Shown: in pieces, positions 37,929-47,115 of the stretch
How the letters are laid out: the number at the start of each line of letters is the position of its first letter
How positions within the stretch are numbered: position 1 is the stretch's first letter
Source of the DNA: Gemmatimonadota bacterium
Lineage (GTDB): Bacteria > JBHIER01 > G020348925
Length of the DNA: 64,000 bases
Direction of reading: 5' to 3'
Assembly (NCBI GenBank): GCA_020348925.1
Contig: CP070758.1
Span: forward strand, 3,859,688-3,923,687
Made by a program: the position numbers and the translations under genes
Notes under the pieces: generated by a model
Seen by the model: the letters and a program-made list of their open reading frames with translations, nothing else
What the model was told of the DNA's origin: nothing
Databases searched by the model: none

Positions 37929-39674
37929 CTAAGAAGACAGCACACTCCGGTAGAGATTTTTATAAAATCCATCCTTCTCCACCAATTCCTCGTGATGCCC
38001 CGTCTCAACGATCTCCCCGTCCTTCATAACGAAGATCGTGTCAGCTTCTCTGACTGTCGAAAGCCGATGGGCAATAATCACAGTGGTCCTGTTTTTTGAA
38101 AGCTGAAACAGGCTCTTCTGCAACAGAGCCTCGGTCTCTAAATCCAAGAATGACGTAGCCTCATCAAGTATGACGATCTTCGGATTTTTCAGAAAAACCC
38201 TGGCGATGGCAATGCGCTGAGCCTGTCCACTGGAAAGACGGAGCCCCCTCTCCCCGACCTGTGTTCTGTAACGATCCGGAAGGGAAAGGATAAAATCATG
38301 ACATCCGGCATCCTTTGCCGCCTGAATAATCTTTCGATCATCGGAGATTCTGTTACCGTATGCTATATTTTCCCTGACGCTTCCACTTAAAACAAAAGTG
38401 TTTTGCAGAACAATCCCCATTTGGCTGTGCAGAAATTTCAGATCAATTTCTCGAACATCCACATGATCCACCATGACGACTCCTTCATCGGGCTCGTAAT
38501 AGCGAGAAAGGAGACCGCACAGAGTCGTCTTTCCACTCCCGCTCGGTCCCACTATGGCAACCGTTGATCCTCCTGAAACATCAAACGTCACATTTTTCAA
38601 CACTCGATTGTAAGGATAATATCCGAAGCTCACGTTCCGAAATGAAATATGGCCTTCCAAAGCACCCGGAACGACATTCCCCTCATCGCATTGAGAACGA
38701 ACATCATATATTTCATAAAAGCGATCGAAGCTGACCAAAGCCGCCTGCAAACTCAAAATGATATTGGTCGCTGTGGTAATGGGATTGTAGAGTCTGTTGG
38801 CAAACATCATGAACGCCATCAGACCCCCTAAACTCAAACTCTCATGAATCACCAAATGTCCACCGTAGTAAAGAATTATGAAAGCCCAGAGATTGTTGAT
38901 ACAATTGACAGTGCTCGCCGAGCATTTGGTGAGCATAAAGCTTCTTATTTTCTTAATGACGAAATCATGGAGATCCCGATGAAATCTCAGAAGTTCTGAT
39001 CCTTCCGCAGCTGATCCTTTAATCATTTTCAAATTCCCCAGACATTCGATCATTCTGCCAGTTATGTCTTCAGCCTTCTCCTTGACCAACCGTGAATACT
39101 TGATAATAGGTTTATAGAACTTGAATATGGTTACAACATGACCGATAAAGATGGCAAACACAGCCAATGCCAGTTTCCAGTTGAGAATGAACATGCCGGC
39201 CGCAATAAAAAGTGCAATGATGATATTCATGAAAAAATTTATTGGGGTGGCGGCAATAAACTGATGTATTACGTCGGTGTCCCTCATAATCCTATAGTGG
39301 AGTTCACCGCTTTTTTTTGAATCCAGGAAGTGTACAGGGATCTTTTTTAAAATGCGGGCGTAAAAGTCAAACTTGATATCAAAATCAATTTTCTGATCGA
39401 TCCGAACAAAAACGTAATTCTGGAATATATCCAAGGCCGTTCCAAAAATTAAAACCCCCAGCATCACTCCCAACAAGATTCTCATTAATCCCAAGTTCTT
39501 GTTTATAATAACATCGTCAATAATTATCTTCGTCAAAATGGGAGTGATGAGGGACAGGAACAAAAAGACGAAAAGAAGAATGACGCACAAAGCTATTGTA
39601 TCTATATACTTCAAGCCATATGTTTTCAATGCTCTTGTGTATCTACTGTGAACAAAATCGTACAGAACGAACAC
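37929..39674 (-). CDS. ABC exporter (fused TMD-NBD), no C39 peptidase domain
   Basis: Membrane domain, then GPSGSGKT, LSSGQAQRIAIAR, ILDEATS and IAHRLST. The N-terminus starts directly with the TMD. Confidence 0.92.
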   Translation of the reverse strand: MFVLYDFVHSRYTRALKTYGLKYIDTIALCVILLFVFLFLSLITPILTKIIIDDVIINKNLGLMRILLGVMLGVLIFGTALDIFQNYVFVRIDQKIDFDIKFDFYARILKKIPVHFLDSKKSGELHYRIMRDTDVIHQFIAATPINFFMNIIIALFIAAGMFILNWKLALAVFAIFIGHVVTIFKFYKPIIKYSRLVKEKAEDITGRMIECLGNLKMIKGSAAEGSELLRFHRDLHDFVIKKIRSFMLTKCSASTVNCINNLWAFIILYYGGHLVIHESLSLGGLMAFMMFANRLYNPITTATNIILSLQAALVSFDRFYEIYDVRSQCDEGNVVPGALEGHISFRNVSFGYYPYNRVLKNVTFDVSGGSTVAIVGPSGSGKTTLCGLLSRYYEPDEGVVMVDHVDVREIDLKFLHSQMGIVLQNTFVLSGSVRENIAYGNRISDDRKIIQAAKDAGCHDFILSLPDRYRTQVGERGLRLSSGQAQRIAIARVFLKNPKIVILDEATSFLDLETEALLQKSLFQLSKNRTTVIIAHRLSTVREADTIFVMKDGEIVETGHHEELVEKDGFYKNLYRSVLSS

Positions 39675-40094
39675 CCCTCCTTTCGACGAGAGGAGTATGA
39701 AATGTGAAGAAACCCGGACCTCTTTGGTTCTATGGCGAATTCGCGGTTCGACGAAAATCTGAAGGAAGCCTATCCAATGATTCTCTCGCCGGCAACGCTC
39801 TCAAGCGATGCGTGCAAGAAGACGTCCACCGAAGCGATACATATCATGAAACAATCGTCTCTTCTATTTCACAATGTGACGAATGCACCAGGTGCCAAAA
39901 TTTTGTGAATAGAGAGACGTTCAAAAAAAAACTTGCACCTCAGTATCTGATTTGAAAAACATCACAGACAAGAAGCTTCGAACATACTGTTATTTTTTCT
40001 GGAGTTGTGTCTTTGCGCCCCTGCGCGAACAATTTTCGGAGAAGACTTTTCTCGAGCCGACCGTAATCATGTCAGAGCTTCGAATATCTTCAGT

Positions 40095-45371: not shown

Positions 45372-46069
45372 ATCCTCTGCTGTCCCCGCTGCGTGAACCA
45401 CCGACTAAAAATGATCACATCCTTTTTCGGTCCAAATTCATCTCGGAGCGTCGACTCTTTTGAAAAACCGTTGTGGATAAAGAAATCGCAGATTCTTCTA
45501 ATACCTTTTGAACGTTTCACCACAAGCCCTTTCACCTTGGTACATTCCACAAGGGCAACACCGGGAAGACAGTCGAAAGCAAAATTGAGAAGTGCTGACA
45601 AAATAGGGTGAGGGACGGTCTTCGGGTACAAACTGAGAATCAGCTCAAGGACCGCTGCTCGGTAAGAATACTGAGGAAGAGGGAATCTGAAACTCAGAAG
45701 CGCTGAGGGCGTATCGCACTTTCGCAACAGGAAAAAAGCGGCGGTGTACTTAAACAAATGCGATCTGATATCAGTTTCTGAGTATGCTCCCAGCGGTAAT
45801 GAGGGGCTTACGTAAAAGGGAAGGTTGGGAGCACCTCTCGAATTCGAACGAAAAAACCCGAACAAGCTCATAAAGTATGCAATGTCATCGATATCCTCTT
45901 CACGGGCCAGGGCAACTGTGACGTCGTTCCCCAAACTCCGCTCAAACAATTCCTCGCGGTCTACTCCGTGAGGACCGTACGTCTTGATATGATGATCCTG
46001 ACTGAATTGAGGCATAATGTTTCCCCTTTCTGCATCACATGTACGACAATCGGCTTGGGACAACTTCAT
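45368..46069 (-). CDS. GNAT-like protein, RRE-less paralogue of 43038-43937
   Basis: AREEDIDDI/ATEEDVGEI, PFYVSP/PFYENP, YSETDIR/YDETVIR, CTKVK in both, and GFSKESTLRDEFG..KDVIIFSRW. Confidence 0.72.
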   Translation of the reverse strand: MKLSQADCRTCDAERGNIMPQFSQDHHIKTYGPHGVDREELFERSLGNDVTVALAREEDIDDIAYFMSLFGFFRSNSRGAPNLPFYVSPSLPLGAYSETDIRSHLFKYTAAFFLLRKCDTPSALLSFRFPLPQYSYRAAVLELILSLYPKTVPHPILSALLNFAFDCLPGVALVECTKVKGLVVKRSKGIRRICDFFIHNGFSKESTLRDEFGPKKDVIIFSRWFTQRGQQRI

Positions 46070-47115
46070 TCGTGCCCAGCCTCAAACGGATTCTCATCAA
46101 TCAGATCAATGAACAGACAATCATCATAGAACACCGTCGGTGTGTCGGGATCAATTTTTCCAAAATCCGGAACACTTCGTATGCGACGAGCGAGTTTCCT
46201 GACGATCGAGAGGCTCCAGGCGCGACCGAGCCCTGCATCCCAATACGACTTCAATGAATGCTTGCGGATATTTCCGAGAGAGAGCGGCAAATAGGGCGAA
46301 ACCGTAATGTTACCGTCCGCACATATTGTCACGAAGGGGCAAAAACCGTCCGCCTTGTTTCGAAAGTGTATGAGATGTTCAACAGGATCACCCCACTCGA
46401 CCCTCATATCTTGGCAACCATTCAGGATCTGTATCTTCTGTATCAATGTGCGATATTCGTAAGGTGTCGGCACAATCTTCTCCTGGTTCGGCAGAGCCCG
46501 TCCCAAAATCATCAGTGGCTGTATCCGAACCAGACCCACACCGCGTTTTTTAACCAGATCGACCACGTCTTCGATCTCGCCGATGTTGAATTTTGTCGGT
46601 GTAAAGGCGACGCCCACTCTAATGTTTTCACGGCGAAGATTGTCAATCGAATGAAGTGCTTTTTGAAATGATCCGGGGGCCAGTCTCAGCTGCTCATGGG
46701 TGGATGCTCGCGAACCGTCCAGGCTGACCTGAACCTGGTACACGCCAACGTCCCTCAATCGTCTCGCCCTTTGACGGGTCAAAAGCAGACCGTTGGTCAC
46801 CAGAGAGGCTTTTATCCCCGCAGTTCTCAGTATTTCAAAGCCTTCGTACAAAAGTGATTCTCGTAAGAACGGTTCGCCCCCGCAGAAACAGAATGAATAT
46901 GGTTTTAAGTATCGTATATCCTCATCTAAAAATCGAATCACCTCTTCATCGGAGAGCTCTTTTCTCCTGTCCCCTCTCTCCCCGCTCAAATTGAAGCAAT
47001 GCAAACACCGCATGTTACACCGATACGTGATATCATACGCGATGTGAAGAGGTCCTCTTTGAACCCTGGCATCTTTCGAGAGCGGTACATCCTTGATCGT
47101 CAACGTATCGTTCAT
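46066..47115 (-). CDS. radical SAM enzyme with truncated/degenerate Twitch domain
   Basis: CNMRCLHC, CGGEPFL, VTNG, QVSLDG; C-terminal CPFVTICADGNITVSPYLP..GN. Confidence 0.9.
   Translation of the reverse strand: MNDTLTIKDVPLSKDARVQRGPLHIAYDITYRCNMRCLHCFNLSGERGDRRKELSDEEVIRFLDEDIRYLKPYSFCFCGGEPFLRESLLYEGFEILRTAGIKASLVTNGLLLTRQRARRLRDVGVYQVQVSLDGSRASTHEQLRLAPGSFQKALHSIDNLRRENIRVGVAFTPTKFNIGEIEDVVDLVKKRGVGLVRIQPLMILGRALPNQEKIVPTPYEYRTLIQKIQILNGCQDMRVEWGDPVEHLIHFRNKADGFCPFVTICADGNITVSPYLPLSLGNIRKHSLKSYWDAGLGRAWSLSIVRKLARRIRSVPDFGKIDPDTPTVFYDDCLFIDLIDENPFEAGHE

Follow-up and report, generated by a model that had tools for sequence, protein, structure and literature searches.

The described systems that come closest to the locus analysed here each share parts of its make-up. 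SkfB, the radical SAM enzyme of the sporulation killing factor of Bacillus subtilis, acts on a ribosomal peptide and is encoded with an ABC exporter and immunity genes. In PqqD/PqqE pairs, the leader-binding PqqD domain resides on a separate protein beside the radical SAM enzyme. The fused B proteins of lasso peptide pathways join an RRE to a second domain. Lasso leaders carry a conserved YxxPxL motif, according to excerpts of PMC10368454. Sactisynthases and radical SAM epimerases both take the C-alpha hydrogen, which the epimerases restore from an enzyme Cys, and the epimerase systems YydF/EpeE and PoyD combine hydrophobic or membrane-stress peptides with tolerance of variable cores and ABC export (PMC8326336, partial text). 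GNAT-fold proteins are encoded in the RiPP clusters of selidamides, lipolanthines, goadvionins and lipoavitides (PMC13647313, partial text). Finally, in the SDP/SdpI and YdbST systems of Bacillus, membrane proteins of the SdpI-family, DUF1648 and bacterial-PH types are found beside a gene for a hydrophobic toxic peptide; for instance, YdbST confers protection from amylocyclicin, and YfhL, a paralogue of SdpI, from the SdpC toxin (excerpts of PMC8144471).

The locus lies in a stretch of 64,000 nucleotides from a Gemmatimonadota bacterium (contig CP070758.1, positions 3,859,688 to 3,923,687), called here the window, whose positions are used throughout. Ten open reading frames, all on the minus strand, are present at 37929-47115, as the initial annotation had proposed, and its domain calls hold overall in Pfam, with qualifications for the GNAT-like, Twitch-like and second DUF3108 assignments. 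Of the several ATGA overlaps that it mentioned, the one between the rSAM1 and GNL1 genes is certain, and a second exists only if rSAM2 begins at codon 13. Pfam and NCBIfam revealed no lasso, YcaO, Lan or NHLP components among the ten genes, none of the cluster proteins reached a curated NCBIfam family cut-off, and no description of such clusters was found in the literature searched, so that the earlier view of a gene set matching no recognised class stands. The locus belongs within the radical SAM RiPP pathways, as a variant not described before. The gene cluster is real, and its most likely function is to modify a small, very hydrophobic peptide of ribosomal origin and to export it. We assign a probability of about 0.6 to the reading that it is biosynthetic and makes, by the full pathway proposed below, a ribosomal peptide natural product from a so far undescribed family.

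By contrast with PqqD/PqqE pairs, the RRE is here fused to a 190-aa GNAT-fold domain and the substrate would be a hydrophobic peptide; the cluster proteins also score far under the cut-offs of the NCBIfam PqqD (25.8 vs 46) and PqqE (78.9 vs 381) models. The lasso fused B proteins resemble the fusion found here (RRE-GNL), and the window leader, which reads Y-E-x-P-x-I and then G four residues on, would correspond to the lasso motif with I for L. However, neither a B2 transglutaminase-like protease nor an asparagine-synthetase-like C cyclase is found among the ten genes (Pfam), on the lasso PqqD model a window protein scores 20 bits where 70 are required, and the spacing between motif and core varies in the window's peptide family. 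Similarly, the GeoRSP models (TIGR04302 and TIGR04303) are not reached, with 103.6 against 400 for a cluster radical SAM enzyme and 18.8 against 100 for a PqqD-family protein.

The precursor gene (42785..42961, minus strand) encodes 58 aa, with a leader at about residues 1-22 and a hydrophobic core from about residue 23. That this is a real gene, as first proposed, is borne out by 19 relatives with a conserved leader: M1, Y4, E5, P7, I9 and G13 are conserved in 90% or more of the set of 20 formed by the window peptide and these relatives, defining the motif Y4-E5-x-P7-x-I9-x3-G13. The cores that follow are variable and resemble membrane spans, with a mean hydropathy of at least 2.25 in a 19-residue window in 18 of the 20. 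Neither Pfam nor NCBIfam matches the peptide, nor does it show an NHLP or Nif11 leader. The window peptide has exactly one core Cys, C23, as had been noted; within the family, eight peptides contain one Cys and twelve contain none. The seven peptides of the window's subgroup all carry A-V-C-T-W, Cys23 being invariant there, and the presence of Cys correlates with that of rSAM2, as the window's subgroup has both and the related locus L004 neither, a comparison of two kinds of locus only. The gene is present in a single copy in the genome and starts with GTG, 8 nt after a GGAGG Shine-Dalgarno sequence that constitutes the best ribosome-binding site of the operon. A strong RNA hairpin (42711..42756, minus strand) directly follows it and may act as an attenuator or transcript stabiliser. 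The 111-nt stretch containing this hairpin has a folding energy of -46.4 kcal/mol (z -3.94), which none of 200 shuffles equals; a simple terminator scan does not call the hairpin. From its hydropathy and bPH/SdpI-type neighbours, it is plausible that the gene product is membrane-active.

Two radical SAM enzymes are encoded in the cluster, with Pfam Radical_SAM scores of 79 and 83 bits. In rSAM1 (46066..47115, minus strand; 349 aa), which has no RRE, Radical_SAM at residues 29-187 is the sole Pfam match. Among solved structures, SkfB comes nearest (6efn, E 1.5e-16; alignment over residues 21-289), although rSAM1 reaches only 59.6 bits on the NCBIfam SkfB model, whose cut-off is 300. The initial annotation had called rSAM1 Twitch-like; the alignment indeed extends to the start of the SkfB Twitch hairpin, but the Twitch-cluster cysteines are absent. 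Only C33, C37 and C40 (the CxxxCxxC motif) and C76 are invariant among rSAM1 homologues, no conserved auxiliary-cluster cysteines were found, and the Cys near the hairpin is not column-invariant. Additionally, unlike SkfB, rSAM1 has no N-terminal RRE, and most substrates of its family are free of Cys. Epimerisation finds no support at the family level, because rSAM1 obtains 33 bits on the YydG epimerase model TIGR04078 (cut-off 300), over the common core only. The second enzyme, rSAM2 (43947..45401, minus strand), combines Radical_SAM and SPASM with a C-terminal PqqD-type RRE at 418-478, in agreement with the earlier assignment. Its true start is probably the ATG at codon 13 (45365), which would create the second ATGA overlap in the operon, and the window's own product in the protein collection is the 472-aa form (P0178). 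A homologue with 71% identity (P0179) is encoded on a contig of 7647 bases, and close relatives of the peptide and of RRE-GNL are each likewise reported on a contig of 7647 bases.

RRE-GNL (43038..43937, minus strand; 299 aa) consists of a PqqD/RRE winged helix at about residues 10-105 and a GNAT-fold domain at about 115-299, and the call of an RRE-GNAT-like protein is thus upheld by Pfam for the first part and Foldseek for the second. Pfam places PqqD at residues 38-99 (E 1.2e-10, 42 bits, cut-off 23.4) and no family on the remainder, and a profile search of the PDB finds PqqD 5sxy as the sole solved relative by sequence (E 4.7e-4). GNL1 (45368..46069, minus strand; 233 aa), for which no Pfam or NCBIfam family was found, is a paralogue of the GNAT-fold domain that lacks most of the RRE, and aligns with residues 73-297 of RRE-GNL at 31% identity (E 3e-32). 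The predicted complex of RRE-GNL with the peptide scores 0.40 against 0.01 for the best control and is rated as weak support: among 80 solved complexes, 58 reach the mark, as do 2 among 110 mismatched pairs, and scores of 0.60 or less that reach it belong to only 7 of the 80 solved complexes and to both of these mismatches. For this complex, contact agreement between runs is 48% or higher, and the pLDDT of the partner is at least 43, its own fold being uncertain.

The remaining genes concern export and the membrane. The ABC exporter (37929..39674, minus strand) has fused membrane and ATPase domains (Pfam ABC_membrane and ABC_tran), as expected from the initial annotation; Pfam detects no C39 peptidase domain, and the NCBIfam alignments start at about model position 143-146 of peptidase-bearing exporters. 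Two membrane proteins, likewise correctly recognised, are candidate self-protection proteins by analogy with the Bacillus systems: one with a bacterial PH domain (42088..42630, minus strand; bPH_5, Pfam E 3.6e-7) and a small DUF3784 protein (40972..41352, minus strand; Pfam E 2.6e-9). These are not of the SdpI or YdbS/T families, and BLASTP finds no similarity between the DUF3784 protein and the SdpI-family protein of L004. Of the two proteins described as DUF3108-like, the first (41339..42127, minus strand), with no evident signal peptide, exceeds the Pfam cut-off (29.5 vs 26 bits), but the second (40095..40844, minus strand) falls below it (22.7 bits); the two share 29% identity over 110 aa (E 9e-6). 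Directly upstream of the cluster, an AraC-type HTH protein (47402..47803, minus strand; Pfam HTH_18, E 3.9e-20) is a possible regulator, judged by adjacency only.

A core set of rSAM1-type enzyme, RRE-GNL, leader-bearing peptide and ABC exporter is shared by the window, the low-GC metagenome contig L004 and plasmid p330 of Clostridium felsineum (L012), which come from unrelated organisms, and in all three the peptide gene adjoins the enzyme genes; the check for syntenic clusters was therefore positive. In L004, rSAM1 and RRE-GNL have 48% and 35% identity, respectively, to those of the window; they are accompanied by two divergent family peptides with the same leader, an SdpI-family protein, an ABC exporter and two bPH_5 proteins in the position equivalent to that of the window gene. 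In p330, RRE-GNL (28% identity), rSAM1 (44%) and an ABC exporter occur with a 51-aa peptide that carries D-Y-E-S-P-x-I-x3-G and a Val/Ala/Trp core, DUF1648 and M16 peptidase genes adjoining. The rSAM1 homologues (44-48% identity) adjoin the fusion gene in L004, L005, L006 and L012, and ABC exporter homologues with 35-39% identity end the clusters of L004-L006; no family peptide was found in the stretches of L005 and L006 examined, where rSAM1, fusion and exporter are present. The RRE-GNL family comprises at least 104 clusters at E <= 1e-30, and its members, where named at all, are called only "PqqD family". As a conserved precursor-like small ORF accompanies both the RRE fusion and a radical SAM enzyme, the RiPP-type nature first attributed to the locus is sustained. 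The cluster family is rare, scattered and so far undescribed, and a cultured Clostridium is also a carrier.

The GNAT-fold domains could be active acyltransferases, with the RRE guiding side-chain or N-terminal acylation of the leader-bound precursor, and the product a (lipo)peptide bearing an acyl group; acylation by GNATs has precedents in selidamides, lipolanthines, goadvionins and lipoavitides (PMC13647313, partial text). The fold itself is clear, as the AF2 model of RRE-GNL (pLDDT 81) gives RimJ, PaiA and RimL as top Foldseek matches in the PDB, with E values of about 1e-8 (best 1.1e-8, to 3igr) and target TM-scores of 0.6-0.73. Charged residues are conserved in the domain (E126 in 86%, R171 in 91% and E283 in 95% of 137 family members), and one look-alike ESM Atlas cluster carries Acetyltransf_10 on 31% of its members. 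However, the GNAT-like call is confirmed by fold only and escapes detection by sequence models: at E <= 0.01, neither paralogue is matched by any GNAT model of Pfam or NCBIfam, and the profile search of the PDB yields no GNAT even at E 10. In GNATs, a pyrophosphate-binding loop with the pattern Q/R-x-x-G-x-G/A follows strand 4; here, most of the 137 members have a very short beta4-alpha3 loop. Acylation is doubtful because the acetyl-CoA loop motif, [QR]xxGx[GAS], occurs in just two of them, and no conserved Lys or other obvious acceptor was found across the family cores. Furthermore, the GNATs of the acylated classes are free-standing, whereas those of the window's family are RRE-fused and always paired with a radical SAM enzyme. 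The possibly acylated product originally suggested is consequently unlikely.

Could the locus instead be a known sactipeptide- or ranthipeptide-type cluster, in which rSAM2 forms a Cys thioether and the other genes are accessory? The domains of rSAM2, the invariant Cys23 of the window's subgroup and the proximity of rSAM1 to SkfB would fit, and rSAM2 matches the maturase models of StsB (E 3.5e-26, 92.1 bits), PapB (E 1e-17, 64.4 bits) and AlbA (E 1.8e-16, 59.6 bits), yet these scores are far under the curated cut-offs of 625, 340 and 850. As each peptide has at most one Cys, in place of the several donor Cys residues that mark the cores of these classes, most have none, and the enzymes conserved as a pair across the family are rSAM1 and RRE-GNL rather than rSAM2, we regard this explanation as quite unlikely. 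It is highly improbable that the small ORF encodes a common small membrane protein or a component of the transport or immunity apparatus, with some other target, such as another peptide or a cofactor, for the radical SAM enzymes. Although its core resembles a single transmembrane helix and L005 and L006 have no detectable peptide homologue, a mere anchor is disfavoured because the polar N-terminal motif is better conserved than the membrane-like part, whereas an anchor would be expected to show the reverse. Moreover, peptide and RRE fusion are found together in three distant lineages, the leader motif resembles the YxxPxL of lasso leaders (PMC10368454, excerpts), and both divergent copies in L004 keep an identical leader type.

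We therefore return to the biosynthetic pathway that we favour. The 58-aa product would serve as the substrate, with roughly the first 20 residues forming a leader that the PqqD/RRE domain of the 299-aa fusion would bind. The fusion protein may then present the hydrophobic core to rSAM1, its constant partner. Because rSAM1 is nearest to SkfB yet lacks auxiliary cysteines, and most cores are free of Cys, it would be expected to abstract a hydrogen at the backbone C-alpha and to resolve the radical without oxidation. L-to-D epimerisation is tentatively the likeliest outcome, though at less than even odds, and an aromatic crosslink the main alternative. In the window's subgroup, rSAM2, with its SPASM domain and own RRE, would most likely crosslink Cys23. 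The GNAT-fold domains are less likely to be acetyltransferases than to provide rSAM1 with a scaffold or docking module, or to use a different donor. The product would be secreted by the ABC exporter, and the bPH_5 and DUF3784 proteins may protect the producer. No leader peptidase gene or other means of leader removal was found within the cluster.

RiPP classes are defined by chemistry, and new pairings of enzyme and leader are a route to new chemistry. The cluster supplies a defined substrate family, with a Y-E-x-P-x-I-x3-G leader and transmembrane-like cores, and a radical SAM enzyme without the auxiliary clusters usual for peptide crosslinkers. A 2025 survey found that 21% of PF05402 proteins exceed the size of a discrete RRE without other Pfam annotation, and termed this an opportunity to explore (PMC12710340, partial text); the RRE-GNL family suggests a testable role for the many "PqqD-only" proteins that are about 300 aa long. 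As one member sits on a plasmid of the cultured C. felsineum DSM 6424, the product can be sought directly. A more specific and rather unlikely possibility is that the family peptides are membrane-length, neutral-to-anionic and epimerised at multiple backbone sites by a cluster-poor, SkfB-derived radical SAM enzyme, guided by a catalytically silent GNAT-fold/RRE chaperone. If this were true, radical SAM peptide epimerisation would have a third, independent origin, the resulting peptides would form channels in the manner of gramicidin or polytheonamide, and the genes would have been transferred among Clostridia, Caldisericia-like bacteria, this deep-branching sediment lineage and others.

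The ten minus-strand genes at 37929-47115 form a cluster that resembles, in its workings, radical SAM RiPP pathways guided by an RRE. All the ORFs that the initial annotation had reported there were found in place, and they encode rSAM1 (46066-47115; Pfam Radical_SAM), GNL1 (45368-46069; no Pfam family), rSAM2 (43947-45401; Radical_SAM, SPASM and a C-terminal PqqD), RRE-GNL (43038-43937), a 299-aa fusion of a PqqD/RRE and a GNAT-fold domain in which Pfam recognises PqqD only (residues 38-99), a 58-aa precursor (42785-42961; no Pfam family), three proteins belonging to the Pfam families bPH_5 (42088-42630), DUF3108 (41339-42127) and DUF3784 (40972-41352), a second DUF3108-like protein (40095-40844; sub-threshold for DUF3108) and an ABC exporter (37929-39674; ABC_membrane and ABC_tran). 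GNL1 and the C-terminal two thirds of RRE-GNL are paralogous (31% identity, E 3e-32), the likeness of rSAM1 to rSAM2 is confined to their cores (28%) and the two DUF3108-like proteins show a weak kinship (E 9e-6). As for the several ATGA overlaps described initially, the one between rSAM1 and GNL1 stands, and there is a second if the start of rSAM2 lies at codon 13, the start used in the 472-aa form present in the protein collection. No convincing small ORF was seen in the 420-base gap at 39675-40094, and Rfam gave no match at E <= 0.1 between 37000 and 48600.

On one flank, the cluster is bordered by ordinary genes (urocanase, NifU, LptE), and on the other by an AraC-type HTH gene in the same orientation, followed upstream by a divergent efflux set at 48524-54851, which comprises a PadR regulator and TolC-like, MFP and AcrB-type RND proteins. 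Elsewhere in the window there are two very long, putative minus-strand ORFs, at 3-3926 (1308 aa, cut by the window end) and 55849-60765 (1638 aa); both lie in its G+C-richest parts and are overlapped by several plus-strand ORFs.

The 58-aa ORF is a real, conserved gene. A GGAGG Shine-Dalgarno sequence, the best in the operon, lies 8 nt ahead of its GTG start, and the gene is present in a single copy in the genome. When a profile made from three peptides was run against a collection of 5.8 billion proteins, 20 were retrieved, including the window's own. M1, Y4, E5, P7, I9 and G13 are each found in at least 90% of these aligned peptides, and the next 30-45 residues are freely divergent. A 19-residue stretch with a mean hydropathy of at least 2.25 is present in 18 of the 20, acidic residues outnumber basic ones in all of them, and Cys is absent from 12. 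The window's peptide falls in a close subgroup of seven, where the other six are 50-90% identical to it (five of them 77-90%, over the full length) and where an invariant A-V-C-T-W and an Ala/Val-rich core are common to all. The other 13 peptides, partly from MAGs labelled Caldisericia, start with M-E-[RK]-Y-E-S-P-T-I-E and mostly lack Cys. On the 3′ side of the gene, separate folding revealed a strong hairpin (42711-42756; a 111-nt stretch of -46.4 kcal/mol, z -3.94, with 0 of 200 shuffles folding as well) on which a simple terminator scan made no call. A double-glycine leader served by a C39 exporter was also considered and ruled out, because the exporter has no peptidase domain and the window's subgroup does not conserve the G-G.

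A search for syntenic clusters, which the initial annotation had suggested, showed that the core gene set recurs together with a peptide in two loci and, with no peptide found, in two others. On L004, a low G+C metagenome contig, homologues of rSAM1 (48%) and RRE-GNL (35%) are accompanied by a 72-aa leader-bearing peptide, an SdpI-family membrane protein (without BLASTP similarity to DUF3784), a second leader-bearing peptide, two bPH_5 membrane proteins and an ABC exporter. The second precursor copy of this contig (11843-12043) has a full leader and a hydrophobic core without an ATG, GTG or TTG start; its relative P0159 begins with M. Two further loci, L005 and L006, of high G+C and near-identical to one another, encode rSAM1, RRE-GNL, a second rSAM1-like protein and an ABC protein, and L006 also carries further radical SAM genes; no family peptide was detected in the sequence examined by a strict motif search or by two HMMs, for the whole peptide and for the leader only. 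Beyond its ABC gene, L006 contains at 13788-20363 an RRE-bearing radical SAM gene, another radical SAM gene, a PqqD-like ORF and at least two B12-binding radical SAM genes, and no precursor was identified there.

The remaining locus, L012, is found in one copy on plasmid p330 of Clostridium felsineum DSM 6424, where RRE-GNL (28%, E 5e-34), rSAM1 (44%), a 51-aa peptide and then the exporter are annotated as "PqqD family protein", "radical SAM protein", "hypothetical protein" and "ABC transporter", respectively. The peptide begins with M-D-Y-E-S-P-x-I-x3-G and ends in a Trp/Tyr/Val/Ala-rich core. Divergently, on the opposite strand (3780-8719), lie genes for a DUF1648 protein, an ABC-2-type membrane protein and a 966-aa M16 peptidase (M16C/PreP-like). 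Additionally, close relatives of the precursor (P0166), RRE-GNL (P0002) and rSAM2 (P0179, 71%) are each recorded on a contig of 7647 bases, and P0161 and P0003 each from one of 1365 bases; from these equal sizes, we infer that the members of each set share a contig. Comparison of the window's cluster with L004-L006 and L012 therefore defines a conserved core, with context from four places, that consists of rSAM1, RRE-GNL, a leader-bearing hydrophobic peptide and an ABC exporter. SdpI, DUF1648 and bPH-type membrane proteins are its frequent companions, and rSAM2, GNL1 and the DUF3108 pair are additions found in the window's cluster. The window's own genome has a second peptide-maturation-like locus (contig C1, 948698-951934), with a 442-aa radical SAM protein of the B12-binding type, a 120-aa PqqD-like protein that stands alone and a radical SAM protein of 367 aa whose C-terminus is like that of rSAM1.

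For RRE-GNL, a word-indexed protein search returned only three others (62-66% identity), and among 41 and then 401 sampled genomes around the window's own (40 and 400 others), the fusion was seen in the window's genome alone, the sole other match (genome G395) covering the PqqD part alone. The window's genome is phylogenetically isolated, as one other belongs to the same taxonomic family and all the rest have only the taxonomic domain in common with it. Two pattern scans of the species-genome collection found no relative, which says little because the patterns were very specific. An exhaustive HMMER search with a profile built from 8 sequences gave 948 representative proteins at E <= 1e-3, of which 315 remained at <= 1e-10 and 104 at <= 1e-30; among the 150 matches listed, most span nearly the full profile (about 270-320 aa) and a minority are shorter pieces. 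Ten members that were looked up bear no more specific name than "PqqD family protein" or "PqqD family peptide modification chaperone" and come from MAGs labelled Spirochaetales, Lokiarchaeota/Promethearchaeota or "bacterium". Look-alike clusters in the ESM Atlas, for the most part labelled "hypothetical protein", carry PqqD in 24-71% of their members and are commonest in Bacillota. The G+C content of the window's cluster is 46.4%, compared with 51.2% in the rest of the window; together with the scattered taxonomy of the relatives, this would fit acquisition by gene transfer. Eight sequencing runs are listed for the cluster, all of sediment metagenome DNA and none of RNA, from three studies.

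The GNAT-like domain proposed initially in RRE-GNL is borne out by its fold. In the AF2 model (mean pLDDT 81, pTM 0.79), an RRE of three strands and three helices at the N-terminus precedes a C-terminal GNAT fold, and Foldseek matched the model to RimJ (3igr, E 1.1e-8) and then to PaiA, RimL and SpeG, with target TM-scores of 0.6-0.73. By sequence, no GNAT model of Pfam or NCBIfam matched, and a PDB profile search recovered PqqD only (5sxy, E 4.7e-4), even at E 10. In an alignment of 137 members of 255-325 aa, drawn from P0001-P0153 of the protein collection (16 were left out for length), the positions conserved in at least 85% are P13, R24, E26, N47, G59, I66, D85, W101 and P106 in the RRE part and E126, R171, F175, F274 and E283 in the GNAT-fold part. 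Canonical GNATs have Q/R-x-x-G-x-G/A in the loop that joins strand 4 to helix 3. As this loop is short in the family and the motif occurs in 2 of the 137 members, canonical acyl-CoA use is doubtful, and the suggestion of a possibly acylated product is not sustained.

The closest solved relative of rSAM1, which has no RRE, is the sactisynthase SkfB (E 1.5e-16). The description of the enzyme as Twitch-like holds only insofar as the alignment reaches the start of the Twitch hairpin: in the five homologues compared, the auxiliary-cluster cysteines are absent, the only invariant Cys are those of CxxxCxxC and C76, and a Cys close to the hairpin is present in each, its position shifting by one. The AF2 model of rSAM1 is poor (mean pLDDT 58.5, below 50 for residues 243-349). 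By its score, rSAM1 falls outside the YydG epimerase family (33 bits, with the cut-off at 300). The genome's best match to that model, also sub-threshold (44 bits), is a radical SAM gene about 10 kb past the window end (contig C1, 3934379-3934780). rSAM2 has the SPASM signature CxxCx5CxxC and its own C-terminal PqqD.

The data back directly the conserved association of the four core genes, the pattern of conserved leader and variable core, the two folds (RRE and GNAT), and the absence of both the auxiliary-cluster Cys and the CoA motif. From there, a pathway can be proposed in which the RRE of RRE-GNL would bind the Y-E-x-P-x-I-x3-G leader, which resembles the YxxPxL that lasso leaders conserve from position -17 to -12 (PMC10368454). 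The predicted complex of RRE-GNL with the precursor scored 0.40 against 0.01 for the best control (runs agreeing on at least 48% of contacts, partner pLDDT at least 43), classed as "weak support" at a mark that 58 of 80 solved complexes and 2 of 110 mismatched pairs reach, and that only 7 of those 80 complexes, but both passing mismatches, reach at <=0.60. RRE-GNL would then pass the core on to rSAM1. For this enzyme we tentatively favour, as the leading candidate though at well under even odds, a redox-neutral L-to-D epimerisation in which an enzyme Cys would give the hydrogen back, because rSAM1 derives from C-alpha-abstracting enzymes, most substrates are Cys-free and there is no auxiliary cluster for the electron. 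A review has sactisynthases and epimerases part ways precisely at this hydrogen-return step (PMC8326336). The main alternative is a crosslink formed by rSAM1 at the aromatic residues with which most cores begin.

Peptides of the window's subgroup would plausibly be linked by rSAM2 at the invariant Cys23. For the GNAT-fold domains, a likelier role than acylation is docking or scaffolding, which the tight ATGA coupling of rSAM1 and GNL1 fits. The ABC protein would export the product, and the bPH_5 and DUF3784 proteins, or elsewhere the SdpI and DUF1648 proteins, may protect the producer, by analogy with YdbST, which protects against amylocyclicin, and YfhL/SdpI, which protect against SdpC (PMC8144471). 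The window's cluster contains no gene for leader removal; in C. felsineum, the M16C/PreP-like enzyme beside the locus is a candidate leader peptidase.

In agreement with the initial view that the gene set belongs to no recognised class, the cluster did not pass the membership tests applied for sactipeptides/ranthipeptides, lasso peptides, proteusins/epipeptides, the GeoRSP system and canonical GNAT acyltransferases. Its many NCBIfam matches, to radical SAM/SPASM and exporter models, are each far under the curated cut-off, and GNL1, the precursor and the four small accessory proteins had none. Full-text literature searches turned up no description of an RRE/GNAT-fold fusion that is paired with a radical SAM enzyme and peptides of this kind. 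According to a 2025 RRE survey, 21% of PF05402 proteins are bigger than a discrete RRE and bear no further Pfam annotation, and "GNAT" and "acetyltransferase" are absent from its main text (PMC12710340). Judging from genes, with context from four places, we rate these loci as a probable uncharacterised family of radical SAM RiPPs, rare and widely scattered, which can be tested in a cultured Clostridium, C. felsineum.
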